Of a stretch of 64,000 bases of DNA, positions 3,885 through 55,752 are shown piece by piece; the stretch's first letter is position 1, and the number at the start of each line of letters is the position of its first letter. Origin of the DNA: Acidobacteriota bacterium (GTDB lineage: Bacteria > Acidobacteriota > Thermoanaerobaculia > Gp7-AA8); the NCBI GenBank assembly GCA_019244185.1, contig JAFATB010000025.1, positions 352,798 to 416,797 of the forward strand, written 5' to 3'. The position numbers and the translations under genes were made by a program. Below the pieces are notes generated by a model. That model ran no database searches. It saw only the letters and a list, made by a program, of their open reading frames with translations, and was not told the origin of the DNA.

Positions 3885-3891
3885 ACGCGCA

Positions 3892-4335: not shown

Positions 4336-4385
4336 CGTACCGTAGAATAACGCCTACCGATCCCATCACAGCGAGGGAACTCTTC

Positions 4386-5372
4386 ATGAAAACCTTCTTC
4401 AAGGTCATCGGCATCGCCGTGCTGACCATCGTCGCGCTCGCGGCGATCGGCGTGTCGTGGCTCGCGCTGCGCAAGCCGGCGCAGCGTCCGGCGTCCGCCG
4501 AGCGCATCGAAGCGACGCCGGAGCGCATCGCGCGCGGCTCCTATCTCGTCAACCACGTGGCCGACTGCCTCGGCTGCCACTCCGAGCACACGCTTGCGTA
4601 CGGGTTCCCCATCAAACCGGGACGCGAAGGCGCCGGCGGCATCGTGTGGGACGAGAAGATGGGCTTCCCCGGCCGCCTCGCCGCCGCCAACCTCACGCCC
4701 GATCCCGAGACGGGACTCGGCAAGTGGTCCGACGGCGAGATCCTCCGCGCGATGCGCGAAGGCGTCGACCGCAACGGCGACGCGCTCTTTCCGATCATGC
4801 CGTACGTGCAGCTGCGCAATCTCTCCGACGACGACGCGAAGGCGATCGTCGCGTACCTCCGCACGCTGCGCCCGATCCGGTACGAGAAGCCGAAGAAGCA
4901 GCTGAACGTGCCGCTCAATTTCATCGAGAAGTTCATCCCGCAGCCGCTCGAAGGCCGCGTGACCGCGCCCGATCCGAACGACAGCGTGGCCTACGGCCGC
5001 TACCTCACGCGCATCGGCGGCTGCTACGAATGCCACACGCCGCACGACAACAAGGGACCCATCGAGGCGCAGGCGTTCAGCGGCGGCTGGGAAATGATTG
5101 GCCCGTGGGGCCGCAACGTGACCGCGAACCTCACGCCGCACCCCGACACGTTCGTCGGCCGCGCCACGAAGGCGGAGTTCATCGGCCGCTTCCGCGCCTT
5201 CGCGAACTTCACCGCCGCCAACGCCCCCGCCGCCCCCAAAGGCCGCAACACCGTCATGCCGTGGATCGAGCTCTCCGGCATGACCGACCACGACCTCGGC
5301 GCGATCTACGACTATCTGAAGACCGTGACGCCGGTGGCGAAGAAGGTGGACACGTTCCCAAACGCACAGTGA
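4386..5372 (+). CDS. Membrane-anchored diheme cytochrome c
   Basis: N-terminal TM helix; two CxxCH motifs (CLGCH, CYECH); duplicated NLTP...MP modules; GAGGGA RBS-like sequence upstream. Confidence 0.88.
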   Translation: MKTFFKVIGIAVLTIVALAAIGVSWLALRKPAQRPASAERIEATPERIARGSYLVNHVADCLGCHSEHTLAYGFPIKPGREGAGGIVWDEKMGFPGRLAAANLTPDPETGLGKWSDGEILRAMREGVDRNGDALFPIMPYVQLRNLSDDDAKAIVAYLRTLRPIRYEKPKKQLNVPLNFIEKFIPQPLEGRVTAPDPNDSVAYGRYLTRIGGCYECHTPHDNKGPIEAQAFSGGWEMIGPWGRNVTANLTPHPDTFVGRATKAEFIGRFRAFANFTAANAPAAPKGRNTVMPWIELSGMTDHDLGAIYDYLKTVTPVAKKVDTFPNAQ

Positions 5373-11900: not shown

Positions 11901-12335
11901 GCCGAGGTTCGTCCCGTCGGCGGTGTTCGTCGCGACGGTGCCGTCGGGAGTCGAACCGTTGGGGAACTTCACGTTGATGATGAGGTCCCCGCTATTGCCC
12001 GCGGGCAGCGGATTGATGAACGTGAACTGCACGCGCGTGCGTCCGGTGCCGCCGAAGTTCGGCGTCGTGTTGATCGCGGCGACGTCTCCGGTCGGACTCG
12101 CGGGCACGGTCGAGACGAGCTGCACTTCCGCCGGCAGGAGGTCGGTCACGCTCGCGTTGAGGCATGGTCCCGAGGTGCTGCTGCAGTTGTACGTGAGCCG
12201 GTAGCCGAATGTGGCGCCCGTCTGCTTCTTGTTGCCGGGATCGACCTGAATGGCCGATTTGACGAGCGGCTGCGCGGCGAGCTGCAGCGCGAACAGACAG
12301 GCCACGACCAGGAATCCGGAGCGGAAACGGAGCAC
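5928..12335 (-). CDS. Giant surface adhesin-like protein: DUF11/isopeptide-type Ig domains, 3 SdrD B-like domains, 4 GEVED modules, IPTL-CTERM
   Basis: Signal peptide; GD(Y/Q)VWxDxxxDG x3; D(Y/F)GDAP...GEVED x4; C-terminal IPTLDEWALLAVAALLAALAVRRLS. AGGAGG lies 5 nt before GTG 12335 (ORF track starts at 12341). Confidence 0.85.
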   Translation of the reverse strand: MLRFRSGFLVVACLFALQLAAQPLVKSAIQVDPGNKKQTGATFGYRLTYNCSSTSGPCLNASVTDLLPAEVQLVSTVPASPTGDVAAINTTPNFGGTGRTRVQFTFINPLPAGNSGDLIINVKFPNGSTPDGTVATNTADGTNLGPSPGTMTTPPVNVTAVAAENATLSKTLTTSPANLNMPETYRLRIANSNADGTLNLTSIGPVVDTLPSGTVFNGATPAADCQPGCVGTTPATVTWTSPCATPLTPGSNCDVSVNVTFPSATFPSGTSVTNTFTADATPLGKPSENLGVGSTTHNVTTFVPSPGAALQKNVSGSSPNPPTLNQTFSYELVPSNNGNVPLDNLVIIDTLPVELQLASVTTGAYNNLSDFAAGEGVRVSYEKNTAPGVFTLWGSSPNTTTNTTLTAPPPGLGAGEYVTRVRWEYGQAAAGMSASTRPQITGRIINPDNAGGPVAAGDTIQNCAALTSLYTAGPTNVTRNACRSFTLSGPFVQLNPAKDLLSGGGPFNPGQSVAWRLRVRSAAQSSDPAPLEDLVVTDLLPVDLVFVSWTFDDQATGLPAPQNFTQIPNFAGTGRTLLRWSWNAGSGNLGVNQQVWININTTIRNGAQSGSLSNDVTMDSDAPSLALRCSGSSQPDALDYDGDGDTAETLCRATGTLTVAGIAQLVSSKTIKGTCDGGAVSSSAGTLTGGGIEYHLRVQNVGTVPMQNFVLVDILPFVGDTGVRDTNPRGSQWSPLLAAPIVPPSGTTIYYSTSGNPCRGEVGGPTTSCDPPNWTSVAPDPITSVRSFKLEFGNRVVNPFDFIEFTFVMTTPGNVPPSAIAYNSFAYQADRADGLGSLAAEPQKVGIALGACDAASLGDYVWLDTNDDGIQNDGPTGLNGVPVTLYSPGADGVVGTLDDVPLASTITSDSPTGAPGWYTFPGLAPGAYYVHIVRPPNHTPSARDTTNDAEDSDGDANGNSHLVTLAANQNDPTVDFGLVPTAFGAAGDYVWFDSNHDGIQNEPVTNGLNGVTVHLYLDNGNGTREPGAGDPLIATTVTADDVYGRPGYYLFEHLAPGLPYFIEFVQPAAATSATTPNAGGDDAADSDPDAAGLTPIFSVAALETNRTFDAGFILPSGTLSLGDQVWRDTDNDGVYEPQNGESGIDDVRLDLYRDVNNDGEPTLDEFSGSSTTATSGGFAGRYRFDNLAPGNYIVVVAPENFNGGGALAGLTTSTGNDPAPDPDDDVNGDDNGTNVGALVASDPVTLTDNGEPTSEDGNNDTNLTVDFGFITGSVTPLLYDYGDAPDVGAGVAHNDYNTTALDNGPRHQLGVSNAPYLGACVDSDGGFAQNIAANADDLAAGTTTGTCSGGDDEDGVAFSGSFTPGATAAFSVTSGGPTPCTLDAWVDWNQNGVFNDNGEQIAASLVIPIGAPTVLNPAVPANALPGTTYARFRCSSAGGLAPTGPAADGEVEDYAVTVTGADFGDAPASYGSAEHVVDPLVPLYLGTCVDTETASQDSVGANGDDLATGTSRIGTCADDEDGVVLTSTFATCDPASFTVTSSGAAKLDAWIDYNGDGDFADAGEQIFINVPVIAGANALTTTVPCNATSGLTYARFRLSSAGGLTPTSDAADGEVEDYAFTIGAVDFGDAPDSYGTSLAADGPHHILVTGFSLGATVDAESNGQPSSGATGDGADEDGVLLPSALVACSTQNVTVTLTNTAGIATPRLDAWIDFDGNGTFDAGDRIATSLAVSAGANVIPVNVPCNAHTSASYARFRLSSTGIATPTGAATNGEVEDYAIDVEGLDFGDAPDPTYPTLLASNGARHVVLVANNPTLGPSVDTEADGAPSAGADGDDTAGIDDENGVTFAASYVSGTDGTVTLQAGATGGFVNLWVDYNHDGDWNDAGEHVVTDQLLAANTAQSFPMTVPLNTPAGTAVARARISSQTGLGVTGLAPDGEVEDHLVTIVAESPRIGVAMNVTSTYTGTCGVYDLVFDVRLENLGNVALSNVQATTPLASVFVPPATYSVTSITSSDLAVDPAYNGASNQNLLLAGATLQPGQTAIVHINVHLVANCEDKTYNVSTSGSGQSPEGVTVTDISQNGTDADPDNDDDPSNNDVATPVVIQQILPIPTLDEWALLAVAALLAALAVRRLS

Positions 12336-12487
12336 ACCCACCTCCTACCTTGCGCGAACGGATTTCGGGGGACGAGAAACGACCGCGCGCAGGGTAGCAT
12401 CCCGCGCGCAACAGAACGTCAGCGCGGCGCGAAAGAGGCGTCGTTTCGACGCAAAACTCCTCTGCCGCAATTCCGTATAAGCGGCGC

Positions 12488-19842: not shown

Positions 19843-19902
19843 GCCCCGCCTCGTTTGCGATTCCGATGCCTCAGCGCGCTTTTTGCACGCAGCGCAAAGA
19901 CG

Positions 19903-20733
19903 ATGTCGGAAGAAACCGAAGGGCGCACCTCGCCGACAACCGCCACCGTTCACCACTCCATCTTCGAGGAAGGCGTGGGAGAGCTCGAGCGGACGTCGTC
20001 CGCGCTGGCGTGGTCCGGCGTCGCCGCGGGCCTCTACATGGGCTTCTCCTTCCTCGGCAGCGGCGTGCTGCGCGCGCATCTGCCGCAGGCGCACTGGGAG
20101 CCGCTCGTCACCGCGCTCGGCTACACGCTCGGCTTCGTCCTGGTGATCATCGGCCGCCAGCAGCTCTTCACCGAGAACACGCTCACGGTGATGCTGCCGC
20201 TCTTTCACCGGCGCGATGCGCGTACGTTCGCGAACGTGCTGCGGGTCTGGGGCATCGTCCTCGTCGCGAACGTCATCGGCTGCCTGATCTTCGCGTTCGT
20301 GCTCGCGCGCACGGAGCTCGTCGACGGCGAGGTCTTCGCGGCGCTGAAGGCGCTGGCCACGCAGAGCACGAGCCATACGTTCGGCGTGCAGTTCCTGCGC
20401 GGCATCTTCGCGGGGTGGCTGATCGCGCTCGTGGTCTGGCTGCTGCCGTACGCGGAGAACGCGCACGTCCTCGTGATCGTGCTGCTGACGTACACCATCG
20501 GCGCCGCGCAACTCCCGCACGTCATCATCGGAACGATCGAAACCATCTTCCTGCTGTTCATCGGGAAAGCGGGATGGAGCGAGTTCTTCATCGGCTTCTT
20601 TCTACCCGTGCTGCTCGGCAACGTGCTCGGCGGCGTCGGCCTGGTCGCGGCGCTCGGACACGCGCAGGTCGCGGCGAACGGCGATCTGGAAGAAGAAGAG
20701 GATGAGGAAGAGAACGGCTTGATTATTGCTTAG
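19903..20733 (+). CDS. Formate/nitrite transporter family protein (YfdC-like)
   Basis: EGVGELER, QQLFTENT, GWLIA, LGNVLGG; about 6 TM helices. Confidence 0.88.
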   Translation: MSEETEGRTSPTTATVHHSIFEEGVGELERTSSALAWSGVAAGLYMGFSFLGSGVLRAHLPQAHWEPLVTALGYTLGFVLVIIGRQQLFTENTLTVMLPLFHRRDARTFANVLRVWGIVLVANVIGCLIFAFVLARTELVDGEVFAALKALATQSTSHTFGVQFLRGIFAGWLIALVVWLLPYAENAHVLVIVLLTYTIGAAQLPHVIIGTIETIFLLFIGKAGWSEFFIGFFLPVLLGNVLGGVGLVAALGHAQVAANGDLEEEEDEEENGLIIA

Positions 20734-20744
20734 AGCGCCTGACA

Positions 20745-21203
20745 ATGTCCTTGGTTAAGGGTCCCGAGGTCGCCAACGTGCTGGTGGTGGATGACGAACC
20801 GGCCATCCGTGCGCTCGTTGCGAAGATCGTCGAGCGCGCCGGCTTTCCGGTCGACAGCGCCCGCGACGGCGCGGAAGCCATTCAGCGCCTCGAGGAGAAG
20901 TCGTATGCGGTGCTCGTCGTCGACCTGATGATGCCGAACGTCGACGGCTTCGCGCTCATCGATTACGTGCGCCAGCGCGGCGGCGCCAGACCGGCGATCA
21001 TCGTCGTCAGCGCGGGGGACTCCGCGGCGCTGCGCCGCCTCGACGGGTCGATGGTGCACTCGATCCTGCGCAAGCCTTTCGACATCGACGTCCTCGGCGA
21101 CCTGATCACCGCCGCCGCCCGGACGATCTCCGCGGAACGCCAGCAGGAAGAGAAGGCGTCCGAGGGTGCCGTGATCCCGTTCCCGCGCGAAAACGTCTGC
21201 TGA
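20745..21203 (+). CDS. Single-domain response regulator
   Basis: VLVVDDE, DLMMP, KPF. Confidence 0.9.
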   Translation: MSLVKGPEVANVLVVDDEPAIRALVAKIVERAGFPVDSARDGAEAIQRLEEKSYAVLVVDLMMPNVDGFALIDYVRQRGGARPAIIVVSAGDSAALRRLDGSMVHSILRKPFDIDVLGDLITAAARTISAERQQEEKASEGAVIPFPRENVC

Positions 21204-24372: not shown

Positions 24373-26208
24373 ATGCGGACGTGGGTGGCCTGCAGCCTCG
24401 TTCTCATGACAGCCTTCGCCGGCTGTAACCGCGCGAACTCTACCCGCCCGAAGCAACTTCCATACATCCAGCGTTACACCAGTTCGCCCGCGACGAGCCT
24501 CGCCTCCGTGCTCGCGGACGACGGCCAGTGGGTGATGGCGCCGAAGGACTACGCGAACACGCGCTTCTCCTCGCTCGATCAGATCAACACGAAGAACGTC
24601 GGCAACCTGCAGGCCGCGTGGACGTTCTCGACCGGCATCCTGCGCGGCCACGAGGCGGCGCCGCTCATCGTGAACAACACGATGTACATCGTCGGACCGT
24701 TTCCGAACCCCGTCTTCGCGCTCGACCTCACGCGTCCCGGCGGTCCGCTCAAGTGGCAGTACAAGCCGGCCGTGATCTCCGGCGCGAAAGGCGTCGCGTG
24801 CTGCGATTGGGTCAACCGAGGGGCGGCGTTCGGCGACGGCAAGATCGTCTTCAACACGCTCGACAACCAGACCATCGCGCTCGACGCGAACACCGGCGCC
24901 GAAGTTTGGAAGACGACCCTCGGCGACATCAATCAGGGCGAGACCATCACCATGGCCCCGCTCATCGTCAAAGACAAAGTGCTCGTCGGCAATGCGGGCG
25001 GCGAGTTCGGCGTGCGCGGCTGGCTGCAGGCGCTCGACCTGAAAACCGGAAAGCCCGTCTGGAAGGCATTCCATACAGGTCCCGATACGGATTGCCTGAT
25101 CGGCCCCGACTTCAAGCCCTTCTACCCGCTCGACGCCGGCAAAGACCTCGGCGTGAAAACGTGGTCGCCCGAATCGTGGCGGCAGGGCGGCGGCACGATG
25201 TGGGGCTGGATCTCTTACGACCCGCAGCTGAACCTCATCTACTACGGCACCGGCAATCCCGGCCCGTGGAACCCCGAGCTGCGTCCCGGCGACAACAAGT
25301 GGACCGCGACGCTCTTCGCGCGCGACGTCGACACCGGCGCCGCGAAGTGGGCGTATCAGTTCCAGCCGCACGACAACTTCGACTACGACGCCGTCAACGA
25401 GTCGACGCTGCTCGACCTGCACCTGCCCGGCGGCCAGCTGCGCAAAGTGCTCGTGCGCGCGGAGCGCAACGGCTACATGTACATGATCGACCGCGCGAAC
25501 GGCCAGGTGCTCTCCGCCGATCCGTACGCGTTCATCACGTCGACGAAAGGCATCGATCTCAAGACGGGGCGTCCGATCGAGAATCCCGACAAACAGCCGA
25601 AGAGCGGCAAAGTGATTCGCGAGATCTGCCCCGCCGTGCCCGGCGCGAAAGACTGGCAGCCGTCCGCGTACTCGCCGCGCACCGGGCTGCTGTACGTGCC
25701 CTCCGAAAACCTCTGCATGGACTTCGAGGGGCTCGAGGCGAACTACATCGCCGGCACGCCTTATCTGGGCGCGAATATCCGTTACTACGCGGGTCCCGGC
25801 GGCAACCGCGGCGAGCTGCTCGCGTGGGACGTCGTGCATCGGAAAAAAGTGTGGGGCGTGAAGGAACGCTTCCCGACGTACAGCGGCGCCGTCGCCACCG
25901 CGGGCGATCTCGTTTTCTACGGCACCATGGACGGCTGGTTCAAAGCGCTCGACGCCCGCAGCGGCGACACGCTCTGGAAGTTCAAGACCGACAGCGGAAT
26001 CATCAGCCAGCCGGTGACGTGGCGCGGGCCCGACGGCAAGCAGTACGTCGCGGTACTCACCGGCGTCGGCGGCTGGCCGGGCGCCATCGTCTCCGGCGAT
26101 CTCGATCCGCGCGACGCCGGCGCCGGCGACGGCTTCGTCAGCGCCATGAGCGACCTGCCCAAATTCACGGAGAAAGGGAGCACGTTGTATGTCTTCGCGC
26201 TTCCTTAG
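24373..26208 (+). CDS. xoxF: PQQ-dependent methanol/ethanol dehydrogenase, lanthanide-type (XoxF-like) paralog 1, lipoprotein signal
   Basis: Vicinal CC (VACCDWVNRG), GGEFGVRG, GTGNPGPWN, FDYDAVNE (D-Y-D at 25381-25389), FAGC lipobox. Confidence 0.88.
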   Translation: MRTWVACSLVLMTAFAGCNRANSTRPKQLPYIQRYTSSPATSLASVLADDGQWVMAPKDYANTRFSSLDQINTKNVGNLQAAWTFSTGILRGHEAAPLIVNNTMYIVGPFPNPVFALDLTRPGGPLKWQYKPAVISGAKGVACCDWVNRGAAFGDGKIVFNTLDNQTIALDANTGAEVWKTTLGDINQGETITMAPLIVKDKVLVGNAGGEFGVRGWLQALDLKTGKPVWKAFHTGPDTDCLIGPDFKPFYPLDAGKDLGVKTWSPESWRQGGGTMWGWISYDPQLNLIYYGTGNPGPWNPELRPGDNKWTATLFARDVDTGAAKWAYQFQPHDNFDYDAVNESTLLDLHLPGGQLRKVLVRAERNGYMYMIDRANGQVLSADPYAFITSTKGIDLKTGRPIENPDKQPKSGKVIREICPAVPGAKDWQPSAYSPRTGLLYVPSENLCMDFEGLEANYIAGTPYLGANIRYYAGPGGNRGELLAWDVVHRKKVWGVKERFPTYSGAVATAGDLVFYGTMDGWFKALDARSGDTLWKFKTDSGIISQPVTWRGPDGKQYVAVLTGVGGWPGAIVSGDLDPRDAGAGDGFVSAMSDLPKFTEKGSTLYVFALP

Positions 26209-27988
26209 CTCCCTCGGCGTCGCGGCAGTCCTTTGCGCGTGCGCCTGCGCGCGATCGAATCCGCCGGTGAAAACGGATCTGCACCAGCTCTCGCGCGACG
26301 ACGCGCAGTGGGTGATGCCAGCCAAGGATTACGCGTCGACGCGCTACAGCGGCCTCGCGCAGATCAACACCTCGAACGCGAAACAGCTCAAGCTCGCGTG
26401 GACCGTGTCGACGGGACACGACCGCGGACACGAGGCCGGTCCGCTCGTCATCGGCGACACGATGTACTACGTGACGCCGTTCCCCAACGATCTCATCGCC
26501 ATCGATCTGAAGAATCCGACCGGTCCGCCGAAATGGAAGTACCGGCCGCAGAACCTCGAGACCGAATCGCAGGGCGTCGCCTGCTGCGACGTCGTCAACC
26601 GCGGCGCCGCGTACGCGAACGGCAAGGTGTTCCTCAACACGCTCGACGGTCGCACGTGCGCCGTCGATGCGGAGACCGGCAAGGAAGTGTGGGTGAGGCA
26701 GCTCGCCGACATCAACCGCGGCGAGACCATCACCATGGCGCCGCTGGTCGTGAAGAACAAAGTGCTCGTCGGCGACAGCGGCGGCGAGTTCGGTGTGCGC
26801 GGCTGGGTCACGGCGCTCGATTCCGAAACGGGAAAAATCGCGTGGCGCGCCTACGCCACCGGTCCCGATAAGGACGTGCTCATCGGCCCGAACTTCAAGC
26901 CGTTCTACGCCACCGACCGCGGCAAGGATCTGGGCGTCAGCACGTGGCCGAAGGACAAGTGGAAGATCGGCGGCGGCACGATGTGGGGCTGGATCTCCTA
27001 CGACCCCGAGCTCGATCTCATCTACTACGGCACCGGCAACCCGGGACCGTGGAATCCCGAGCTGCGCCCCGGCGACAACAAGTGGACCTCCGGGATCTTC
27101 GCGCGCCGCCCCGACACCGGCGAGGCGGTCTGGTACTACCAGTGGTCGCCGCACGACGAGTTCGATTACGACGGCATCAACGAACAACTCCTGCTCGATC
27201 TCCCGATCGGCGGCAAGACGCGCAAAGTCCTCGTGCGCCCGGAGCGCAACGGCTACATGTACGTGCTCGACCGCGCAACCGGCGAAGTGCTCTCCGCCGA
27301 TGCGTACGGCGCGGTCACCTCGAGCTTCGGCGTCGATCTGAAATCCGGCCGCCTCATCCCGAACAAGGCGAAGGAGCCGGGCACGGGGAAAGTGATCCCC
27401 GACATCTGCCCTGCCGCGCCCGGCGCGAAGGACTGGCAGCCATCGGCGTACTCGCCGCGGACGCGCCTCATCTACGTCCCGCACCAGAACCTCTGCATGC
27501 AGCACGAGGGCACGGACGTGAACTACATCGCCGGCACGCCGTACGTCGGCGCGAACGTCGTCATGGTTCCCGGCCCCGGCGGCCATCGCGGCGAGTTCGA
27601 CGCGTGGGATCCGGTGCAGCGCAAGAAAGTCTGGTCGATCCGCGAGAACTTTCCCGTGTGGTCCGGCGCGCTCGTCACCGCGGGTGACGTCGCCTTCTAC
27701 GGCACGATGGACGGCTGGTTCAAAGCCGTCGACGCCCGCACCGGCACGCTGCTCTGGCAGTTCAAAACCTCCAGCGGAATCATCGGCCAGCCCGTCACCT
27801 ACCGCGGCCCCGACGGCAAGCAGTACGTGACCATCGCCGCGGGAGTCGGCGGCTGGGCCGGCGCGATCGTCGCCGGAGGACTGGACCCGAGGGACGCGAC
27901 GGCGGCGCTGGGGTTTGTAAATGCGATGAAGGATTTGCCGGGAGCCACCAACAAGGGTGGGGTGATTTACACGTTTGCGTTGCCCTGA
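26189..27988 (+). CDS. xoxF: PQQ-dependent methanol/ethanol dehydrogenase, lanthanide-type (XoxF-like) paralog 2
   Basis: VACCDVVNRG, GGEFGVRG, GTGNPGPWN, FDYDGINE (D-Y-D at 27164-27172). Cys-containing signal peptide; 20-bp overlap with paralog 1. Confidence 0.88.
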   Translation: MSSRFLSSLGVAAVLCACACARSNPPVKTDLHQLSRDDAQWVMPAKDYASTRYSGLAQINTSNAKQLKLAWTVSTGHDRGHEAGPLVIGDTMYYVTPFPNDLIAIDLKNPTGPPKWKYRPQNLETESQGVACCDVVNRGAAYANGKVFLNTLDGRTCAVDAETGKEVWVRQLADINRGETITMAPLVVKNKVLVGDSGGEFGVRGWVTALDSETGKIAWRAYATGPDKDVLIGPNFKPFYATDRGKDLGVSTWPKDKWKIGGGTMWGWISYDPELDLIYYGTGNPGPWNPELRPGDNKWTSGIFARRPDTGEAVWYYQWSPHDEFDYDGINEQLLLDLPIGGKTRKVLVRPERNGYMYVLDRATGEVLSADAYGAVTSSFGVDLKSGRLIPNKAKEPGTGKVIPDICPAAPGAKDWQPSAYSPRTRLIYVPHQNLCMQHEGTDVNYIAGTPYVGANVVMVPGPGGHRGEFDAWDPVQRKKVWSIRENFPVWSGALVTAGDVAFYGTMDGWFKAVDARTGTLLWQFKTSSGIIGQPVTYRGPDGKQYVTIAAGVGGWAGAIVAGGLDPRDATAALGFVNAMKDLPGATNKGGVIYTFALP

Positions 27989-27999
27989 AGAGTCAAAGC

Positions 28000-28098
28000 G
28001 AATGAAGAACGCAGAACGCAGAACGCAGAACGTAGAAAGAGGACCGGATGCGCGGAGCGTTTCTACATTCTTCATTCTGCGTTCTGCGTTCTTCATTC
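28000..28098. repeat. Heptamer-repeat palindrome, second copy, overlapping the xoxJ 5' end
   Basis: GAATGAAGAACGCAGAACGCAGAACGCAGAACGTAGAAA ... TTTCTACATTCTTCATTCTGCGTTCTGCGTTCTTCATTC. Confidence 0.85.
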
Positions 28099-28886
28099 TG
28101 CTTTTCACGTGTTGCACGGCACAGTCGCCCCATCCAACGCAGCCCGCTCCCACCTTGCGCGTCTGCTCCGACCCCAACAACCTTCCCTTCTCCAACCGCG
28201 CCGGCCAGGGCTTCGAAAACAAGATCGCGAACCTCATCGCGAACGACCTTCACGAGAAAGTCGAGTACACCTGGTGGGCGCAGCGGCGCGGGTTCCTGCG
28301 CAATACGCTGAAGGCGAAGCAGTGCGACGTCGTGATGGGGTTGCCGACCGGCGTCGACATGGCGGCCGTCACGCGGCCGTATTACCGCTCGACCTACGTC
28401 TTCGTCTCGCGCCGCGACCGGCACCTCGGCATCACGTCGTTCGACGATCCGAAGCTGAAGGCGCTCAAGATTGGGGTCCAGATCATCGGCGATGACGGAG
28501 CGAACGCGCCGCCCGCGCATGCGCTCGCCGCGCGCGGCATCGTCGACAACGTGCGCGGCTACACCGTCTACGGCGACTACCGCCAGCCGAATCCGCCCGC
28601 GCGGATCATCGACGCGGTCGCGCGCGGCGAAGTCGATCTCGCCGTCGTATGGGGTCCGCTGGCGGGCTACTTCGCCAAACGCGAGCCGGTGCCGCTCGAG
28701 CTCGTCCCCGTCTCGCCGGAGATCGATCTCCCGTTCCTGCCGTTCGTCTTCGACATCGGCCTCGCCACGCGCTACGACGACGCCGCGCTGCGCCAGAAGC
28801 TCGAGCTGATCCTCGAGCGGCGCAAGCCGGAGATCGACCGCATCCTCGCCGACTACGGCGTCCCGCGACTCGATACGGAGCTCTGA
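28002..28886 (+). CDS. xoxJ: XoxJ/MxaJ-like periplasmic substrate-binding protein
   Basis: LRVCSDPNNLPFSN...GFENKIA, PYYRSTYVFV, VWGPLAGYFA; lies directly after xoxF. Confidence 0.88.
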   Translation: MKNAERRTQNVERGPDARSVSTFFILRSAFFILLFTCCTAQSPHPTQPAPTLRVCSDPNNLPFSNRAGQGFENKIANLIANDLHEKVEYTWWAQRRGFLRNTLKAKQCDVVMGLPTGVDMAAVTRPYYRSTYVFVSRRDRHLGITSFDDPKLKALKIGVQIIGDDGANAPPAHALAARGIVDNVRGYTVYGDYRQPNPPARIIDAVARGEVDLAVVWGPLAGYFAKREPVPLELVPVSPEIDLPFLPFVFDIGLATRYDDAALRQKLELILERRKPEIDRILADYGVPRLDTEL

Positions 28887-28891
28887 ACACC

Positions 28892-29422
28892 ATGAGAAAC
28901 GCGCTCCTCCTCGCCTCGTGCCTCCTCGCCGCAGCAGCCTGCCGCCGCGAGCAGCGCGAGATCGTCCACTCCCCCGCCGCCTCGCATGCGTCCGGCGGCA
29001 TCGTGCGTCTCTCGGAACTGCAGCCCGGCCAGCCGACGCCCGAAGTCGAAGTGCGGAACGCGTCGGAAGAGAAGGCCTACGACATCAACGAAGGGAAGCG
29101 CCTCTTCGCCGCGTACAACTGCAGCGGATGTCACTCCCACGGCGGCGGCGGCATCGGTCCCGCGCTGATGGACAACTACTGGGTTTACGGCAGCCATCCG
29201 GAAAACATCCACGACACCATTGTCGAAGGGCGTCCCAACGGCATGCCGTCGTTCGGCGGAAAAATCCCCGACTACCAGATCTGGGAGATCGTCGCGTACG
29301 TGCGCTCGCTCTCCGGCCTCGTGAACCCCACCGTCGCCCCGTCGCGCGACGATCACATGCAGGTCAAGGTCGCCGAGCAGTCGAAGAAAGAAGAATCGAC
29401 GGAAGAGAAAAAGAAACCGTGA
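28892..29422 (+). CDS. xoxG: XoxG/cytochrome cL-like monoheme cytochrome c, lipoprotein
   Basis: GKRLFAAYNCSGCH..GGGGIGPALMD..WVYG; GRPNGMP; AAAC lipobox. Confidence 0.8.
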   Translation: MRNALLLASCLLAAAACRREQREIVHSPAASHASGGIVRLSELQPGQPTPEVEVRNASEEKAYDINEGKRLFAAYNCSGCHSHGGGGIGPALMDNYWVYGSHPENIHDTIVEGRPNGMPSFGGKIPDYQIWEIVAYVRSLSGLVNPTVAPSRDDHMQVKVAEQSKKEESTEEKKKP

Positions 29423-30381
29423 GGCTCCTCTTCGCCACGTTCCAGTCGCCGCTGCATCCCGCCGGGCCGTACGCCCGTGCGATCGAGAGGCTGTGGTGGG
29501 TCTTCTTCGCGATCACGGCCGTGATCTACGTGCTCATGCTGATCGGCTTCGCGCTCGCCGTGCGCAAAGGCGCGCGCCGCAAGCAGGCCGATCTCAGCGA
29601 CGAGGCCACGCGCAGCGGCGCGCGCTTCATCACCATCGCCCTCAGCGCGACGACGGTCATCCTCATCGGCCTGCTCTTCACCAGCATCGCCACGGGGCGT
29701 GACATCTCACCGGTCGACGACAAGGTCACGCGCGAGATCAAGATCACCGGGCATCAGTGGTGGTGGGAAGTGCAGTACGCCGAGGCGCGGCCGGACATGA
29801 TCGTCGAGACCGCGAACGAGCTGCATCTCCCGGTCGGCGAGCGCGTGAAGCTCATCCTCGACTCGGACGACGTCATCCACAGCCTCTGGATTCCGAACCT
29901 CCACGGCAAACGCGATCTCATCCCCGGCTACGACGGCGTGCTCACGCTCACCGCCGACAAGACCGGCACGTACCGCGCGCAATGCGCGGAGTTCTGCGGC
30001 CTGCAGCACGCGAAGATGGCCTTTCTCGTCATCGTCGAGCCGAAAGCGGACTTCGAGCGCTGGCTGACCGCGCAGCGGCTCCCCGCCCCGTTCCCGAAGA
30101 CCGCCGATCAGCAGCACGGCCAGCAGGTCTTCCTCACCTCGACCTGCGTGATGTGCCACGCCATCAAAGGCACGTCCGCGGGTGCGCGCACGGGACCCGA
30201 TCTCACGCACCTCGCCAGCCGCCGCACGCTCGGCGCCGGCATTCTGCCCAACACGCTCGGCAATCTGCACGGCTGGATCGCGAACGCGCAAACGATCAAG
30301 CCGGGCGTGCTGATGCCGCCGAATCCGCTCGAACCGAACGACCTGCACGCGCTGGTGGCGTATCTGGAGACGCTGCAATGA
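29419..30381 (+). CDS. coxB: Cytochrome c oxidase subunit II with C-terminal cytochrome c (caa3 type)
   Basis: GHQWWW, DVIHSLW, CuA motif CAEFCGLQHAKM, CVMCH. GTGA overlap with xoxG stop. Confidence 0.93.
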   Translation: MRLLFATFQSPLHPAGPYARAIERLWWVFFAITAVIYVLMLIGFALAVRKGARRKQADLSDEATRSGARFITIALSATTVILIGLLFTSIATGRDISPVDDKVTREIKITGHQWWWEVQYAEARPDMIVETANELHLPVGERVKLILDSDDVIHSLWIPNLHGKRDLIPGYDGVLTLTADKTGTYRAQCAEFCGLQHAKMAFLVIVEPKADFERWLTAQRLPAPFPKTADQQHGQQVFLTSTCVMCHAIKGTSAGARTGPDLTHLASRRTLGAGILPNTLGNLHGWIANAQTIKPGVLMPPNPLEPNDLHALVAYLETLQ

Positions 30382-32261
30382 ACGACCAGGAGCTCCATCT
30401 CCGACTCTCCGCGACGTGGCACAAGCCGACGGGGTTGTGGGGCTGGCTCACCGACAACCACCACACCACCATCGGCAAGCGCTTCATCATCACCGCCTTC
30501 GTCTTCTTCATCCTCGGCGGGATCGAAGCGCTGATCATGCGCACGCAGCTCGCGCTGCCCGAGAACCACGTCGTCAGCAACGATCTGTACAACCAGCTCT
30601 TCACCACGCACGGTTCGACGATGATGTTTCTCTTCGCCGTCCCCGTGATGGAAGGCCTCGGCCTCTACTTCGTGCCGCTGATGATCGGCACGCGGCAGAT
30701 GGCGTTCCCGCGTCTCAACCAGTTCGCGTACTTCAGCTATCTCATCGGCGGCGTGCTGCTCTACGTGGGACTCTTCGGCAACTTCGGTCCCGACGCCGGC
30801 TGGTTCGCGTACACGCCGCTCTCCGGCCCCGAGTTCTCACCCGGGAAACGCGTCGACGTCTGGGCGCAGATGATCACCTTCACGGAGATGGCAGCCCTCG
30901 GCGGCGCGGTGAGCATCATCGCCACCGTGTTCAAGCACCGCGCGCCCGGCATGTCGCTGAATCGCATGCCGCTCTTCGTGTGGGGGCAGCTCGTCACCTC
31001 GTTCATGATCATCTTCGCGATGCCGTCGGTGATGGTCGCCAGCGGCATGCTCGCCACCGACCGGCTCATCGCCACGCACTTCTTCAACAAGGCGGAAGGC
31101 GGCGACAACCTGCTGTGGCAGCACCTGTTCTGGTTCTTCGGGCATCCCGAGGTGTACATCATCTTCATTCCGGGCACGACGATGATGTCGACGCTCGTCT
31201 CCGCGTTCACGAAGCGCCCCAACTTCGGCTACCTCGGCATGGTGCTCTCGCTGATCGCGACCGGCTTCATCGGCTTCGGCGTGTGGGTGCATCACATGTT
31301 CGCGACGGGATTGCCGCAGCTCGGCCTCAGCTTCTTCACCGCGTCGAGCGTGCTGATCACGATTCCGACCGCGTTCCAGTTCTTCTCGTGGCTGACGACG
31401 TTGTGGCACGGCAAGATCCACTTCCACTCGCCGATCCTCTATTCGTTCAGCTTCATCGTCATCTTCCTCATCGGCGGACTCACCGGCGTCATGCTCGCGT
31501 CGGTGCCGCTCGACTGGCAGCTGCACGACACCTTCTTCGTCGTCGCGCACTTCCACTACGTCCTGATCGGCGGCGCGATCTTCCCGCTGCTCGGCGCGCT
31601 GACGTACTGGTTCCCGAAGCTCACCGGGCGTCTGATGAACGAGAAGCTGAGCGTCGTCACCGTCTCGCTGCTGTTCGTCGGCTTCAACGTCACGTTCTTC
31701 CCGATGCACCAGCTCGGCCTCATGGGCATGCCGCGCCGCGTATACACGTATCTCCCGAACCTCGGCTGGACGAACCTCAATCTGCTCGCGACGGTGGGCG
31801 CATACATCTTCGGCCTCGGCAGCCTGCTGTTCGTGCTCAACGCGCTGATCTCCGCGCGCATCGGCGTCATCGCCGGTGACGACCCGTGGGGCGGCGCGGA
31901 CCTCGAGTGGGCCACGGCGTCGCCGCCGCCCGCGTACAACTTCCTCTACGTCCCGACCGTTCGAGACCGGTATCCGCTCTGGAGCATGGAGCCCGATCAG
32001 CCGCTCGTCACCGGACTGGCGACGGACCGGCGCGAGATCCTCGTCACGAAGCTGATGGACGCCGAGCCCGATCATCTCTACGAGACGCCCGACCCGTCGA
32101 TCTCGCCGACGCTCGTCGCGTTGGGCGCGGGTATCGGCATCATTGCGGCGATCTTCAACCCTTGGGGCGTGCCGATCGGCTTCGTCCTCGCGGGACTCGG
32201 CCTGCTCGGCTGGTTTTGGCCAAAGCCGCCGCACAAGGAACTGCTGGAGCCGCAGCCGTGA
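30378..32261 (+). CDS. coxA: Cytochrome c oxidase subunit I (A-family like, atypical proton channels)
   Basis: FTTHG, WFFGHPEVY, VWVHHM, LHDTFFVVAHFHYV, GMPRR. ATGA overlap with coxB. Confidence 0.95.
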   Translation: MNDQELHLRLSATWHKPTGLWGWLTDNHHTTIGKRFIITAFVFFILGGIEALIMRTQLALPENHVVSNDLYNQLFTTHGSTMMFLFAVPVMEGLGLYFVPLMIGTRQMAFPRLNQFAYFSYLIGGVLLYVGLFGNFGPDAGWFAYTPLSGPEFSPGKRVDVWAQMITFTEMAALGGAVSIIATVFKHRAPGMSLNRMPLFVWGQLVTSFMIIFAMPSVMVASGMLATDRLIATHFFNKAEGGDNLLWQHLFWFFGHPEVYIIFIPGTTMMSTLVSAFTKRPNFGYLGMVLSLIATGFIGFGVWVHHMFATGLPQLGLSFFTASSVLITIPTAFQFFSWLTTLWHGKIHFHSPILYSFSFIVIFLIGGLTGVMLASVPLDWQLHDTFFVVAHFHYVLIGGAIFPLLGALTYWFPKLTGRLMNEKLSVVTVSLLFVGFNVTFFPMHQLGLMGMPRRVYTYLPNLGWTNLNLLATVGAYIFGLGSLLFVLNALISARIGVIAGDDPWGGADLEWATASPPPAYNFLYVPTVRDRYPLWSMEPDQPLVTGLATDRREILVTKLMDAEPDHLYETPDPSISPTLVALGAGIGIIAAIFNPWGVPIGFVLAGLGLLGWFWPKPPHKELLEPQP

Positions 32262-32920
32262 CGCTGACACCGCCGGCCGCTGATACGACTCCCGCGCCGA
32301 TCGGACGGCGTCTCGTCGACGTGTCGTCGCTGCCGAAGTTCGCGTTCGGCCATCGCGACCCGCTGTGGTGGGGCGTCTGGCTGCTGATCTGTATCGAAGG
32401 AACGATGTTCGTGATGCTCGCGGCGTCGTACGTTTATCTGCGCGGCAACTCCTCGCAGTGGCCACCCGCGGGCGCCGCGAACGCGCCGCTCGCCGTCACC
32501 GCGTCGACCGTCGCGCTGCTGCTCATCAGCATCATCCCCACCGCGATTGCGTTCCGCGCCGCGCTCGATGGACGGCTGCGCGTGATCCAGCTCAACATGG
32601 TGCTCGTCACATTGATCAGCATCGCCGCGGCCGGGACGCGGTGGCTCGAGCTGACGAGCATCGGCTACAACTGGAACAGCCACGCCTACGGCTCCGTCGT
32701 CTGGGGCTTCTACTTCATGCACACGTTCCATCTCGTCTCGGGGGTGTTCGAGAACCTCGTCTTCACGGCGCTGCTCTTCATCGGCCCGGTCGAGAAGAAG
32801 CACATGGTGGACATGCGGCTGTCGGCGATCTACTGGCTGTTCGTCGTCGTGGCGTGGACGCTGCTGTGGGGACTCTTCACCTTCGATTCGCTGCTGTTCC
32901 GCAACTCGATCATCAGCTGA
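32258..32920 (+). CDS. coxC: Cytochrome c oxidase subunit III-like protein
   Basis: WGVWLLICIEGTMF, AYGSVVW..MHTFH, IYWLFVVVAW; about 5 TM; GTGA overlap. Confidence 0.82.
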   Translation: MTLTPPAADTTPAPIGRRLVDVSSLPKFAFGHRDPLWWGVWLLICIEGTMFVMLAASYVYLRGNSSQWPPAGAANAPLAVTASTVALLLISIIPTAIAFRAALDGRLRVIQLNMVLVTLISIAAAGTRWLELTSIGYNWNSHAYGSVVWGFYFMHTFHLVSGVFENLVFTALLFIGPVEKKHMVDMRLSAIYWLFVVVAWTLLWGLFTFDSLLFRNSIIS

Positions 32921-32921
32921 C

Positions 32922-33326
32922 ATGAGCATCCGCGAAGACACGAAGACCGACATCGTCCCCGACCGCGGGAGCGTCCGCCTCTGGACCGTGACGCTCATCC
33001 CGCCGCTGCTGTGGGGACTGCATCTGCAGATCTGCTACTCGCTGCATGAAAGCGTCTGCGAGGCGCAGTCGCCGCTGAAGGGCTACCTCGTCTCCGCGCT
33101 CGCGCTGGTCATCATCGTCATCGACGCGGTCGTCGCCTGGCGGCTCTGGCAGTCGTGGCCGCCGCCGGATGCGGGCGGCGCGGCCGGCTGGTCGGAAGAG
33201 AAAGAGCCGCGCTGGCGCAGCCGCGCGCGCTTCATGGCCGCGGGCGCGTTCGTCGCCGCCTGCTACTTCGGTCTCGTGATCCTGGGACAGACCGTCCCGC
33301 TCGTGATGCTGCGGCCATGCGACTGA
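32922..33326 (+). CDS. Small 3-TM membrane protein in the cox operon
   Basis: Three hydrophobic helices; starts immediately after coxC stop and overlaps ctaG. Confidence 0.7.
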   Translation: MSIREDTKTDIVPDRGSVRLWTVTLIPPLLWGLHLQICYSLHESVCEAQSPLKGYLVSALALVIIVIDAVVAWRLWQSWPPPDAGGAAGWSEEKEPRWRSRARFMAAGAFVAACYFGLVILGQTVPLVMLRPCD

Positions 33327-34465
33327 TCTGGAACCTCCTCGTCGTCCTCTGCATGACCGCGTCGCTCGGTCTCTACTTCCGCGGACTCGCGCGGCTGCGC
33401 GCACGAAGCGACCGAGGCATTCGCTGGTGGGAAGCGAGCGCGTTCGCGCTGGGGTGGTTCACCATCGGCATCGCGCTCCTCTCCCCCATCGCGCGCATCT
33501 CCGACGTCCTTTTCTCCGTGCACATGACGCAGCACGAGCTGCTGATGCTCGTCGCCGCGCCGCTCATCGTCGCGGGCCGGCCGATGATCGCGGGAGTGTG
33601 GGGGCTCGGCGAAGACGCGCGCGCGCGCTTCCTCGCCGTCTCGCGCGCGCCCGCGTTCCTCCGCGCGTGGCACGCCATGACCGGCCCGTTCACCGTGCTC
33701 ATCGTGCACGCGGTGGTGCTGTGGGCGTGGCACATCCCGCGCGCGTTCGAGTGGGCGCTGCACAACCCCTCCGTGCACGCGATGCAGCACCTCATGTTCT
33801 TCATCACGGCCGCGCTGTTCTGGTGGGCGCTCATTCACGGGCGCTACGGGCGCGTCGGCTACGGCGTCGCGGTCTTCTTCGTCTTTGCCACCGCGATGCA
33901 CACCAGCCTTCTCGGCGTGCTGCTCACGTTCGCGCGGCACGTCTGGTATCCGACCTACGCCGCGCACACGCCGCATGCGCTCGAAGACCAGCAGCTCGCG
34001 GGCCTCATCATGTGGATTCCCGCAGGCGTGATCTTCATGCTCATCGGTCTCGCGCTCTTCGCCGCGTGGCTCGGGGAGTCGGAGCGACGCGCGCGCATCG
34101 TGACGATGCTCGTCCTCGCCTTCGTGCTCGCGCGCTGCTCCGATTATCCGAGCGAGCGCGTCGCCTCGGCCGAACACCTCACCGGCGGCAATGTCGATCG
34201 CGGCAAACAGGAGATCCGGCAGTACGGCTGTGCGTCGTGCCACACCATTCCCGGCATTCCCGGTGCGGACGCCACCGTCGGTCCTCCGCTCGACAAGCTC
34301 TCCGCGCGCGGCTACCTCGGCGGACGTCTCGCGAACAATCCCGCGAACCTGCTGCTCTGGATCCGCGCGCCGCAGTCGGTCGATCCGAAGAGCGCGATGC
34401 CGAACGTCGGCGTCACCGACCGCGACGCGCGCGACATCGCCGCGTATCTGTACTCGCTGAAGTAA
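33317..34465 (+). CDS. ctaG: Caa3-type CtaG assembly factor fused to C-terminal cytochrome c
   Basis: FSVHMTQHELLMLVAAPL, WAWHIP, HAMQH, EDQQLAGLIMWIP, then YGCASCH...MP. Confidence 0.85.
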   Translation: MRLIWNLLVVLCMTASLGLYFRGLARLRARSDRGIRWWEASAFALGWFTIGIALLSPIARISDVLFSVHMTQHELLMLVAAPLIVAGRPMIAGVWGLGEDARARFLAVSRAPAFLRAWHAMTGPFTVLIVHAVVLWAWHIPRAFEWALHNPSVHAMQHLMFFITAALFWWALIHGRYGRVGYGVAVFFVFATAMHTSLLGVLLTFARHVWYPTYAAHTPHALEDQQLAGLIMWIPAGVIFMLIGLALFAAWLGESERRARIVTMLVLAFVLARCSDYPSERVASAEHLTGGNVDRGKQEIRQYGCASCHTIPGIPGADATVGPPLDKLSARGYLGGRLANNPANLLLWIRAPQSVDPKSAMPNVGVTDRDARDIAAYLYSLK

Positions 34466-34476
34466 AGTCGCCGCCG

Positions 34477-34881
34477 ATGAAACGCCTCGCCTGGGTTCTC
34501 TTCGTCGCGTCGCTCGCCTGCGCCAAATCCGAAACGCCGCAATCCGCCACCGCCCAACCGACGACCGCGCAGGCCGCGCCGCCGCCCGCGACGTCTGCCG
34601 CGAATCCCGCGCACGGCCAGCAGCTCATCGTGCAGTACGGCTGCACGGCCTGTCATGCGATCCCCGGCATCGAAGGCGCGCAGGGCTCGCTGGCGCCCGC
34701 GCTCGCGCACGTCGCCGCGCGTCCGACGATCAGCAACAACAAGGTGCAGAACACGCCCGAGAACCTGCAGCGCTTCATCCAGAACCCGCCGTCGATGAAT
34801 CCAGGGAGCGGCATGCCGCCGCTGGCGATTCCCGACGCCGACGCGCACGACATCGTCGCGTACCTCGAGACGCTGCGATGA
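34477..34881 (+). CDS. Monoheme cytochrome c lipoprotein
   Basis: SLAC lipobox, Ala/Pro/Thr linker, YGCTACH...GMP. Confidence 0.85.
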   Translation: MKRLAWVLFVASLACAKSETPQSATAQPTTAQAAPPPATSAANPAHGQQLIVQYGCTACHAIPGIEGAQGSLAPALAHVAARPTISNNKVQNTPENLQRFIQNPPSMNPGSGMPPLAIPDADAHDIVAYLETLR

Positions 34882-35849
34882 ACGCGCGCGCCGCCGCCGC
34901 GCTCGCGATGGCGCTCGTCGTTGCGCTGCCCGCGCTCGCGGAACGCATCTACGTCTCGAACGAGCGCGCCGGCACGATCCAGGCGATCGACACGGCGACC
35001 GACCGCATCGTCGCCACGGCGAAGATCGGCGATCGTCCGCGCGGCATCGTGCTGTCGCCCGACGGCAAACGGCTCTACGTCGCGCGCAGCTGGTGGAAAG
35101 GAAAGCACGCCGGCAGCGAGGCCATCGTCGCGATCGATGCAGCCACATTGAAGATCGTGCGGACCTATCCGGCGGGCACCGATCCCGAGGGAGTCGCGCT
35201 GTCGCCGGACGGCAAGCGGCTGTACATGTCGAATGAAGACGCGGCGACGGCGACGATCGTCGACACGTCGACAGCGAAAGAGCTCGAGACGCTGGTCGTC
35301 GGCACGGAACCGGAGGGAGTCGCGGCGAGTCCGGATGGCAAGTGGGTGTACGTGACGGCGGAGACGAGCAACGTCCTCACGGTCATCGACGCGAAGCAGA
35401 AGAAAGTCGTGGCGAACATCCTCGTCGATCCGCGGCCGCGCTACACCGTCTTCACGCGCGACGCGACGCGCGCGTGGGCGAGCGCGGAGATTGGCGGCAG
35501 CGTCTCGCTCATCGACGCGCAGCGCCATCGCGTGCTCGCGCGCGTGAAGCTCGGCAAGACCGACCGCCCCGTCGGGCTCGTGCTCTCGCCCGACGAGAAG
35601 CGGCTCTACATCGGCACCGGCCGCGGCAACAGCGTGCTCGTCCTCGACACGACCACGCGCCGCGTCATCGCCACGATCCCCGCGGGCCAGCGCGTTTGGG
35701 GACTGGCGCGCACGCGCGACGGCAAAAAGCTCTACGCGGCCGGCAGCCTCTCCAACACGATCACCGTCATCGACACCGTCACGCTGCGCCCGATCGCCAC
35801 GATCAAGACGGGCGACGGACCGTGGGGACTCGCCGCGCTGCATCGCTGA
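34878..35849 (+). CDS. YVTN-type beta-propeller (PQQ-catabolism-associated type)
   Basis: Repeated PxG(I/V)xxSPDGKxxYV blades; signal peptide; ATGA overlap. Confidence 0.85.
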   Translation: MNARAAAALAMALVVALPALAERIYVSNERAGTIQAIDTATDRIVATAKIGDRPRGIVLSPDGKRLYVARSWWKGKHAGSEAIVAIDAATLKIVRTYPAGTDPEGVALSPDGKRLYMSNEDAATATIVDTSTAKELETLVVGTEPEGVAASPDGKWVYVTAETSNVLTVIDAKQKKVVANILVDPRPRYTVFTRDATRAWASAEIGGSVSLIDAQRHRVLARVKLGKTDRPVGLVLSPDEKRLYIGTGRGNSVLVLDTTTRRVIATIPAGQRVWGLARTRDGKKLYAAGSLSNTITVIDTVTLRPIATIKTGDGPWGLAALHR

Positions 35850-55572: not shown

Positions 55573-55752
55573 GGATACGACGAGGAGCGCCTCCGGCGGG
55601 CCGGCGCGGCCGGCGGCGCTGAGGGCCTAGCCTAGACGCACGTGCGGTCGCGCTGATCGTGTTGACGGCAGCCGCACGTGCGTACTGGCTAGGCCCTCAG
55701 CGCCGCCGGCCGCGCCGGCCCGCCGGAGGCGCTCCCGGTCGGTATCCCTACG
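55568..55752. repeat. REPIN-like inverted doublet with GTAG termini supplying both stop codons
   Basis: CGTAGGGATAC (55568-55578) pairs with GTATCCCTACG (55742-55752); arms of about 75 bp around a short spacer. Confidence 0.88.

Follow-up and report, generated by a model that had tools for sequence, protein, structure and literature searches.

In this study, we describe an operon of eleven co-oriented genes, numbered g1 to g11 in their order, which occupies positions 24373-35849 of a 64,000-nucleotide stretch of DNA (the window) from an Acidobacteriota bacterium (contig JAFATB010000025.1, positions 352,798 to 416,797 of the forward strand). It is a real operon, linking two predicted lanthanide-dependent alcohol dehydrogenases to an O2-reducing oxidase of their own, and its unusual point is that the entire respiratory branch is encoded by one operon. 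We consider it likely that the locus belongs to the XoxF3 systems, in which periplasmic dehydrogenases using pyrroloquinoline quinone (PQQ) and a lanthanide to oxidize an alcohol, most likely methanol, would work together with a dedicated A-family caa3-type oxidase.

All eleven frames lie on the + strand and are intact, their starts being set by frame continuity and adjacent stops, and the successive junctions from g1/g2 to g10/g11 measure -20, +13, +5, -4, -4, -4, +1, -10, +11 and -4 bp. Families were assigned with Pfam and NCBIfam profiles against the curated cut-offs (Table 1). The first-pass annotation, made from the sequence before these comparisons, had described eleven co-oriented genes that overlap or are at most about 13 bp apart, which agrees with the coordinates and junctions, and the functions that it gave to them are borne out by the profile calls. 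A scan for promoters and terminators was uninformative, with 0 promoter-like sites and with 9 terminator-like sites as compared with 7.1 ± 2.9 in shuffled sequences.

The solved structure closest to both dehydrogenases is 4MAE, the XoxF2 enzyme of Methylacidiphilum fumariolicum SolV (676 bits for g1 and 664.7 bits for g2). In the alignment of g1 the motifs GGEFGVRG, GNPG and FDYDA fall on E172, N256, D299 and D301 of 4MAE (equivalent residue numbers were counted by hand on the printed alignment), and the vicinal Cys-Cys is kept; g2, which is 66% identical to g1 and was aligned to it, has GGEFGVRG, GNPG, DYD and the vicinal CC. Since the four ligands and the motifs are kept in g1 and g2, both carry the lanthanide sequence signature, i.e. 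the extra Asp of D299-x-D301 in addition to the Glu172 and Asn256 ligands, and the lanthanide-type active site assumed in the first-pass annotation is present in the two enzymes. From these residues we infer that both of them depend on lanthanides. The other possibility is that they are calcium-dependent or metal-promiscuous and that the signature is merely ancestral, to which the lack of lanthanide-uptake genes in the window and the behaviour of xoxF3 in Methylocella silvestris (see below) would lend themselves. Against it, the D301-equivalent Asp and the other three ligands are kept in both enzymes, lanthanide binding in XoxF1, 2, 4 and 5 is reported to require the extra Asp (Voutsinos et al. 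2024, BMC Biol, PMC10875860, drawn on throughout in excerpts), and in Methylosinus trichosporium OB3b the XoxF3 protein was strongly induced by Ce and by ore (excerpts of PMC12482762). We regard calcium dependence or promiscuity as very unlikely.

To place g1 and g2 among the known clades we used as a scale the paralogues from the Bradyrhizobium genome behind one of the surveyed loci (L048), namely a true XoxF5, a PedH-like protein and one further type. Scores of g1 and g2 amount to 527-586 bits against XoxF5, 7O6Z (which we take to be a XoxF1-type enzyme) and most MxaF structures, to 467-510 bits against the weakest MxaF chains, and to 306-365 bits against ethanol-type enzymes. For the Bradyrhizobium XoxF5 the score with 6OC5 is 1067 bits and that with 4MAE, the SolV enzyme, 678 bits; on this scale g1 and g2 are as far from each clade of solved structure as such clades are from one another. 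A FastTree phylogeny was calculated from 85 rows, of which 80 are XoxF-type frames of at least 540 amino acids (aa), among them g1 and g2, and five are paralogues serving as the outgroup; short fragments and two PQQ proteins of 834/835 aa that are unrelated were left out. All 80 cox-linked-type rows are found on one side of a branch excluding XoxF5 (Shimodaira-Hasegawa-like support 92, not starred), in a tree that has this kind of support only and in which long outgroup branches are flagged. The name XoxF3 was given to g1 and g2 on the grounds of elimination, the acidobacterial host and the published operon context, as the locus has the cox and ctaG genes described for XoxF3; XoxF4 is not known outside Methylophilaceae.

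The two dehydrogenases differ in their position in the tree. g2 forms with L019_10138 and L001_4408 a trio (starred support of 100) nested among the cox-linked sequences of Acidobacteriota and Gemmatimonadota, while g1 forms with L019_9950 and L001_2547, from the same two loci, another trio (also 100, starred) that branches near the base of the group. By this phylogeny g1 is a deep-branching paralogue located upstream of the canonical g2. A recent tandem duplication is ruled out by the 66% identity and by the closer orthologues that each of them has in other genomes. We also considered the 'acido-empty-quinoprotein' family TIGR04528, because the genome is devoid of PQQ synthesis, and rejected it, as g1 and g2 reach 333 and 330 bits where the cut-off is 650, and their active-site residues are intact.

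The trio of g1 has seven fixed substitutions as compared with at least 90% of the 77 other XoxF3 (residues 233, 363, 394, 465, 471, 503 and 586, being F/Y, A/P, I/V, L/V, Y/M, Y/W and D/L, respectively), and the one at position 503 is a change of W to Y. Substitutions of this kind would fit a reading in which the true substrate is another alcohol or an aldehyde (ethanol, longer alcohols, formaldehyde), with the paralogues dividing the range and 'methanol dehydrogenase' being a misnomer. The same reading is favoured by the absence over cut-off of Fae, FTHFS and glutathione-dependent formaldehyde dehydrogenase, by the assignment of g3 and g11 to the generic quinoprotein-catabolism families TIGR03871 (not MoxJ) and TIGR03866, and by the lack of XoxF3 biochemistry noted in the excerpts of PMC10875860. 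Nevertheless, g1 and g2 are much closer to the SolV methanol dehydrogenase (approximately 665-676 bits) than to the PedH/ExaA type (306-360 bits), and in the phylogeny they group with XoxF5 and not with the PedH-like paralogue. Moreover, XoxF-type enzymes are reported to oxidise formaldehyde too (PMC10875860), and for this reason missing formaldehyde pathways are no argument against methanol. A different substrate seems to us unlikely, and methanol is kept as the preferred one.

The oxidase is encoded by the genes that follow. In the translation of g5 the CuA ligands H…CAEFCGLQHAKM were read directly, and its fused C-terminal cytochrome c (CVMCH, PF00034 at residues 233-319) marks the enzyme as caa3-type; g6 shows the GHPEV motif and is an A-family haem-copper oxidase subunit. 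The equivalog matches of subunits I and II, together with the CuA ligands and the cytochrome c fused to subunit II, place the enzyme in the A-family caa3 type. The genome has three COX1 genes, of which g6 shares only 39% and 36% identity with the others, and g3, g4, g8 and g9 are without a paralogue there; on both counts we take the operon oxidase to be an extra, dedicated one. The claim of the first-pass annotation that the dehydrogenases have their 'own' oxidase holds in so far as it is encoded with them, beside two other haem-copper oxidases of the genome. The cytochrome c domains of g5, g9 and g10 are mutually paralogous (g10 is 42% identical to the C-terminus of g9 and 37% to that of g5). 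Many related loci seem to have the g10-like domain solely as a fusion with CtaG.

The small protein g8, encoded between CoxC and CtaG, gave no Pfam or NCBIfam match, no COX4 family among them, and its Atlas matches were unnamed clusters only. Its AlphaFold2 model (predicted local distance difference test, pLDDT, 83.8) consists of three helices, for which Foldseek returned no match in PDB at E <= 0.001. Residues P28, C46, F104, P132 and C133 are invariant in an alignment of 17 sequences, and a reading of the charges puts both cysteines, C46 and C133, probably on the periplasmic side. When g8 was modelled together with CoxA and CoxC, ipSAE values of 0.74, 0.74 and 0.73 were obtained, as compared with 0.00 for the best control. 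The predicted contacts involve residues 286-330 of CoxA and also CoxC; pLDDT of the partners is 76 or more, and 87% or more of the contacts are common to the runs. Of 157 solved complexes 116 came up to the docking mark, as did 2 of 215 mismatched pairs, counts that hold only roughly in this case because own alignments and three chains were used; likeness to solved oxidases with small extra subunits may contribute to the score. We predict g8 to be an extra membrane subunit of the oxidase, whose binding the model supports without showing it.

Taken together, the following path can be proposed. An alcohol would be oxidised at PQQ/Ln3+ in g2, the canonical XoxF3, and in g1, the divergent paralogue; electrons would pass to the class I cytochrome c g4, putatively lipid-anchored, and possibly to g10, and then through the cytochrome c domain on CoxB to CuA, haem a and the haem a3-CuB centre, where O2 would be reduced. 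The three-helix g8 would be the additional subunit of this oxidase, g9 (CtaG-cytochrome c) would assemble it, and the XoxJ-like g3 and the propeller g11 would serve as accessory periplasmic proteins. PQQ and lanthanides would be scavenged, and formate would be removed by a formate dehydrogenase encoded elsewhere.

Proposed supply and removal are based on the content of the genome (5.30 Mb, 26 contigs, 98.9% complete), in which g1 and g2 are the only TIGR03075 genes. Genome-wide, pqqC (51 bits, cut-off 240), pqqE (88 bits, cut-off 381.35) and pqqB (36 bits, cut-off 245) were not found over cut-off, Fae and FTHFS gave no match in the genome, and glutathione-dependent formaldehyde dehydrogenase remained under its cut-off (112 bits vs 544). 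An FdnG-type formate dehydrogenase was found over cut-off (906 bits; C4:575618-578527), with one in-frame TGA that probably codes for selenocysteine. In view of the missing PQQ synthesis and of the missing recognised route for formaldehyde handling or formate assimilation, the module most likely serves for energy only, and the host looks like a PQQ auxotroph able to gain electrons from methanol while devoid of the usual markers of one-carbon (C1) handling and assimilation. In the window the Pfam pass over 33 further open reading frames (ORFs) revealed no pqq or lanthanide-uptake genes, in agreement with the first-pass annotation; linkage to NRAMP, which has been reported for some XoxF3 loci, is missing here, the single Nramp gene of the genome being on contig C12. 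A formate/nitrite transporter gene upstream of the operon and an fdhD gene downstream of it were noted as well, and together with FdnG they hint that formate is an end product handled by the cell.

The lack of PQQ synthesis also calls for weighing whether the module is idle, i.e. whether the enzymes are apo-forms and the operon a recently acquired or decaying accessory island. Besides pqqB, pqqC and pqqE being under cut-off, the patchy occurrence of the module in the genus points in this direction: a XoxF3-level match is found in 14 of 34 other species genomes of the genus (13 of 33 when genome G029 is left out), the tandem pair in 4 of these 34, and among genomes from other families of the order or class there is none (0 of 24). 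Yet the eleven frames are intact and their junctions coupled, the catalytic residues are conserved, and the four other species carry orthologous twin operons at 76-80% identity. Furthermore, PQQ biosynthesis capacity was described for just 16 of 38 XoxF-containing genomes analysed (PMC10875860), which suggests that scavenging of PQQ is common. An idle module is extremely unlikely in our opinion. One genome of the genus (G020) has, besides the tandem pair, a third XoxF3-level copy on another contig (C44:3900-5621).

Cys-containing N-termini can be read in the translations of g1 (…AFAGC), g2, g3, g4 and g10. In nearly all acidobacterial and gemmatimonadal XoxF3 a hydrophobic stretch ends in a lipobox-like Cys, after which a Pro/Ala/Ser/Gln-rich linker of 30-45 aa precedes the conserved mature start. 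According to a heuristic motif count, which is uncalibrated, lipobox-like N-termini occur in 21 of 25 XoxF from Acidobacteriota, in 12 of 13 from Gemmatimonadota and in 60 of 72 homologues of g4. The lipoprotein-like signals that the first-pass annotation had ascribed to both dehydrogenases, XoxJ, XoxG and the last cytochrome are thus visible as motifs, and the count supports them; anchoring of these proteins in the membrane would follow if the motifs function as lipoboxes. A full-text literature search returned nothing relevant on lipoprotein xoxF in Acidobacteria.

The g2/g3 junction is occupied by a palindrome resembling repetitive extragenic palindromes (REP-like). Its arms are 92% complementary. 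The g3 start codon lies within the palindrome, and the hydrophobic core of the signal peptide of g3 is specified by the second arm. Its 21-mer core has 119 arm matches genome-wide, mostly as +/- pairs 70-90 bp apart. The palindrome might act as a hairpin between cistrons of the mRNA; alternatively, it might be a mobile repeat that has come to serve as a signal peptide. A single arm is present elsewhere in the window. In the L019 genome, of the same genus, an analogous palindrome built of the heptamer GAAGGCA lies at the same xoxF-b/xoxJ junction, with the frame through it likewise ending in a lipobox, and another one is placed between its two xoxF genes.

How far this arrangement is shared was surveyed in the 80 best loci for g1 in contigs taken from one genome per species, which were compared with the eleven operon proteins. 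Co-oriented coxB and coxA are found within 10 kb in 68 of these 80 best loci, 55 times downstream and 13 times upstream, the latter mostly in Bradyrhizobium. Three of the remaining loci are cut at the locus end and six are too short to tell; the oxidase is absent in 3 of the 80, each with at least 4.7 kb of downstream sequence. The 80 loci span Acidobacteriota, Gemmatimonadota, Pseudomonadota, one Verrucomicrobiota and one Rokubacteria record.

The excerpts of PMC10875860 describe XoxF3 systems in Acidobacteria, Gemmatimonadetes and Verrucomicrobia, with a gene set of XoxJ, XoxG, CoxI-III, CtaG, CytC and a YncE-type propeller, and with a conserved hypothetical protein of about 110-130 aa between CoxIII and CtaG; an earlier link of cox and ctaG with xoxF3 operons is attributed there to the Keltjens 2014 mini-review. 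The statement of the first-pass annotation that xoxF3-type loci are linked to cox genes is confirmed by this paper and by the 68 loci of the survey. For the same reason the layout cannot count as a novelty, being in print and recurring in these loci across five phyla. The refuting case named in the first-pass annotation, a previous characterisation of an identical architecture, applies as far as genomes are concerned but not for the biochemistry, and as a genomic observation our description repeats published work. What is added to it are the g1 paralogue, the widespread lipobox-like signals, the docking of g8 and the genome marker absences.

Several points weigh against the assignment to a lanthanide-dependent, methanol-oxidizing XoxF3 system. 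The name XoxF3 was given with no named XoxF3 reference sequence among the rows of the tree, and rests on elimination, synteny and taxonomy. The metal and substrate of g1 and g2 are inferred, since according to the excerpts of PMC10875860 no XoxF3 enzyme has been purified or characterised biochemically. In Methylocella silvestris xoxF3 was near-silent and its transcription did not respond to lanthanum (excerpts of PMC9291206). The 'XoxJ' of the first-pass annotation is correct for g3 as regards TIGR03871, while the MoxJ/XoxJ equivalog TIGR03870 is not reached (149.7 bits, cut-off 258.1). Likewise, 'XoxG' fits g4 as a class I cytochrome c in the proper operon position, but g4 is under the cytochrome cL/XoxG profile TIGR03872 (43.3 bits, cut-off 147.8) and among solved structures it is closest to CcoP haem domains (73 bits, as compared with 40 bits for cytochrome cL); judged by these scores, it is a 'XoxG' by position only. 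The families of g3 and g11 are named for general 'PQQ-dependent catabolism' and would fit other alcohols. The lipobox count was made with a home-made regular expression of unmeasured false-positive rate, which flags also 16 of 35 Pseudomonadota XoxF, some of them resembling ordinary AxA signal peptides, and the start and signal peptide of g3 are less certain because its N-terminus is encoded by the REP-like palindrome. Absence calls come from a 26-contig draft and concern marker families only. Finally, enzymes in a cell lacking PQQ synthesis need an external supply of it.

A more far-reaching interpretation of XoxF3 modules, which we put forward tentatively and hold to be rather doubtful, is that they are lipid-anchored, cofactor-scavenging 'plug-in' chains, in which XoxF3 lipoproteins on tethers of 30-45 aa and a lipoprotein cytochrome c would sit on a four-subunit caa3 oxidase and form an alcohol:O2 supercomplex, an assembly that the first-pass annotation had put forward too firmly. 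The g8 proteins, outside any known family, would provide the fourth subunit, with an invariant periplasmic Cys pair, and the g1-type paralogue would extend the substrate or metal range. If this were true, non-methylotrophic, PQQ-auxotrophic soil Acidobacteria would respire trace methanol for energy only.

The subject deserves attention, as the Voutsinos study found XoxF3 to account for 340 of 411 dereplicated sequences and thus to be the most abundant type of methanol dehydrogenase in its metagenomes of weathered granite and soil (PMC10875860). The locus presented here is a clean test case: a near-complete genome contains the canonical and the divergent enzyme side by side, a full dedicated oxidase with a candidate new subunit, and neither PQQ synthesis nor recognised C1 assimilation. 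Expression and assay could show whether or not XoxF3 oxidizes methanol with a lanthanide, whether its electrons reach the oxidase encoded with it, and whether methanol is purely an energy source for abundant soil Acidobacteria, a question of relevance to methanol sinks in soil and to cross-feeding of lanthanides and PQQ. The leads to be followed are g8 as a predicted oxidase subunit, the putative lipid anchors, the deep-branching paralogue and a way of life in which cofactors would be scavenged and the module would yield energy only.

Coordinates of the operon genes and of other features are collected in Table 1. Among the genes at a distance from the operon, a cytochrome c-domain ORF and a polyphosphate kinase 2 gene overlap on opposite strands, and in their shared stretch just one frame can be correct.

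Table 1. Features of the window and of a related locus, with profile matches in bits (curated cut-off in brackets)
Feature	Coordinates	Strand	Description	Profile match or motif
g1	24373-26208	+	PQQ/lanthanide-type alcohol (methanol) dehydrogenase, divergent XoxF3-like paralogue	TIGR03075 659.6 (480.05)
g2	26189-27988	+	canonical XoxF3-type PQQ/lanthanide dehydrogenase	TIGR03075 650.1 (480.05)
REP-like palindrome	28000-28098	.	g2/g3 junction	39-nt arms of GAACGCA heptamers
g3	28002-28886	+	XoxJ-like periplasmic solute-binding protein	TIGR03871 314.7 (212.15)
g4	28892-29422	+	monohaem class I cytochrome c (CSGCH), probable lipoprotein	PF13442 and PF00034
g5	29419-30381	+	CoxB, subunit II	TIGR02866 164.8 (147.7)
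g6	30378-32261	+	CoxA, subunit I	PF00115 477.9; TIGR02891 673.8 (670.75)
g7	32258-32920	+	short CoxC, subunit III; position conserved in related loci	PF00510 25.5 (23.8), weak
g8	32922-33326	+	134 aa, three transmembrane helices	no Pfam/NCBIfam family
g9	33317-34465	+	Caa3_CtaG with C-terminal cytochrome c (CASCH)	PF09678 188; PF00034 at residues 294-382
g10	34477-34881	+	small cytochrome c (CTACH), Cys-containing N-terminus	PF00034
g11	34878-35849	+	YVTN/YncE-type beta-propeller, Sec-type signal	TIGR03866 ('PQQ-dependent catabolism-associated') 297.7 (287.3)
Polyphosphate kinase 2 gene	3090-4265	-	overlaps the next feature	
Cytochrome c-domain ORF	4092-5372	+	overlaps the preceding feature	
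Surface-type protein	5928-12344	-	2138 aa	four GEVED domains, SdrD B-like repeats, DUF11, IPTL-CTERM sorting motif
Single palindrome arm	18065			
Formate/nitrite transporter	~19900-20733	+	~4 kb upstream of the operon	PF01226
Response regulator	20706-21203	+	stand-alone, ~4 kb upstream of the operon	
FdhD	55748-56587	-	20 kb downstream of the operon	
Palindromes of L019	13670-13780 and 11816-11925			

In the classical MxaFI/XoxF5 chain electrons flow from the dehydrogenase through cytochrome cL/XoxG and cytochrome cH to an aa3 oxidase whose genes are located elsewhere, and PQQ methanol dehydrogenases all bypass the quinone pool. The operon shares with it a periplasmic PQQ dehydrogenase followed by c-type cytochromes and an oxidase, with no involvement of the quinone pool, and the bypass inferred in the first-pass annotation is the normal route for every enzyme of this kind and no special trait of the locus. 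It differs in that g4 falls short of the cL/XoxG equivalog profile (43.3 bits, cut-off 147.8), in that oxidase, assembly factor and extra cytochromes share one operon, and in the locus having neither a small subunit gene nor mxa accessory genes. The caa3 enzymes of Thermus and Bacillus are A-family oxidases with a small subunit IV. Common features are the CuA subunit II with fused cytochrome c, subunit I with GHPEV, a Caa3_CtaG assembly factor and, if g8 is an oxidase subunit as predicted, a small hydrophobic additional one whose gene follows that of subunit III; unlike them, the acidobacterial g8 has a match neither in the COX4 families nor among solved folds (E <= 0.001), CtaG carries a cytochrome c domain of its own, and subunit III is short, with a marginal COX3 match of 25.5 bits.

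In the comparison with the XoxF2 of SolV (4MAE/6FKW) the catalytic Asp, the cysteines of the vicinal disulphide and each of the four lanthanide ligands align, whereas g1 and g2 have lipobox-like N-termini with the 30-45 aa linker, score at the between-clade level and are tied to an oxidase operon. The closest counterparts are the XoxF3 systems of Voutsinos et al. (PMC10875860, excerpts), which have the same gene set and order, come from the same phylum and include a class I cytochrome c termed XoxG. In contrast to them, two tandem dehydrogenases are present here, the first being from a deep-branching paralogue lineage, and neither an NRAMP gene nor a TonB receptor gene is located near the locus. 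The small hypothetical protein, which was likened there to vesicle-transport proteins, is in our models predicted to dock on CoxA and CoxC.

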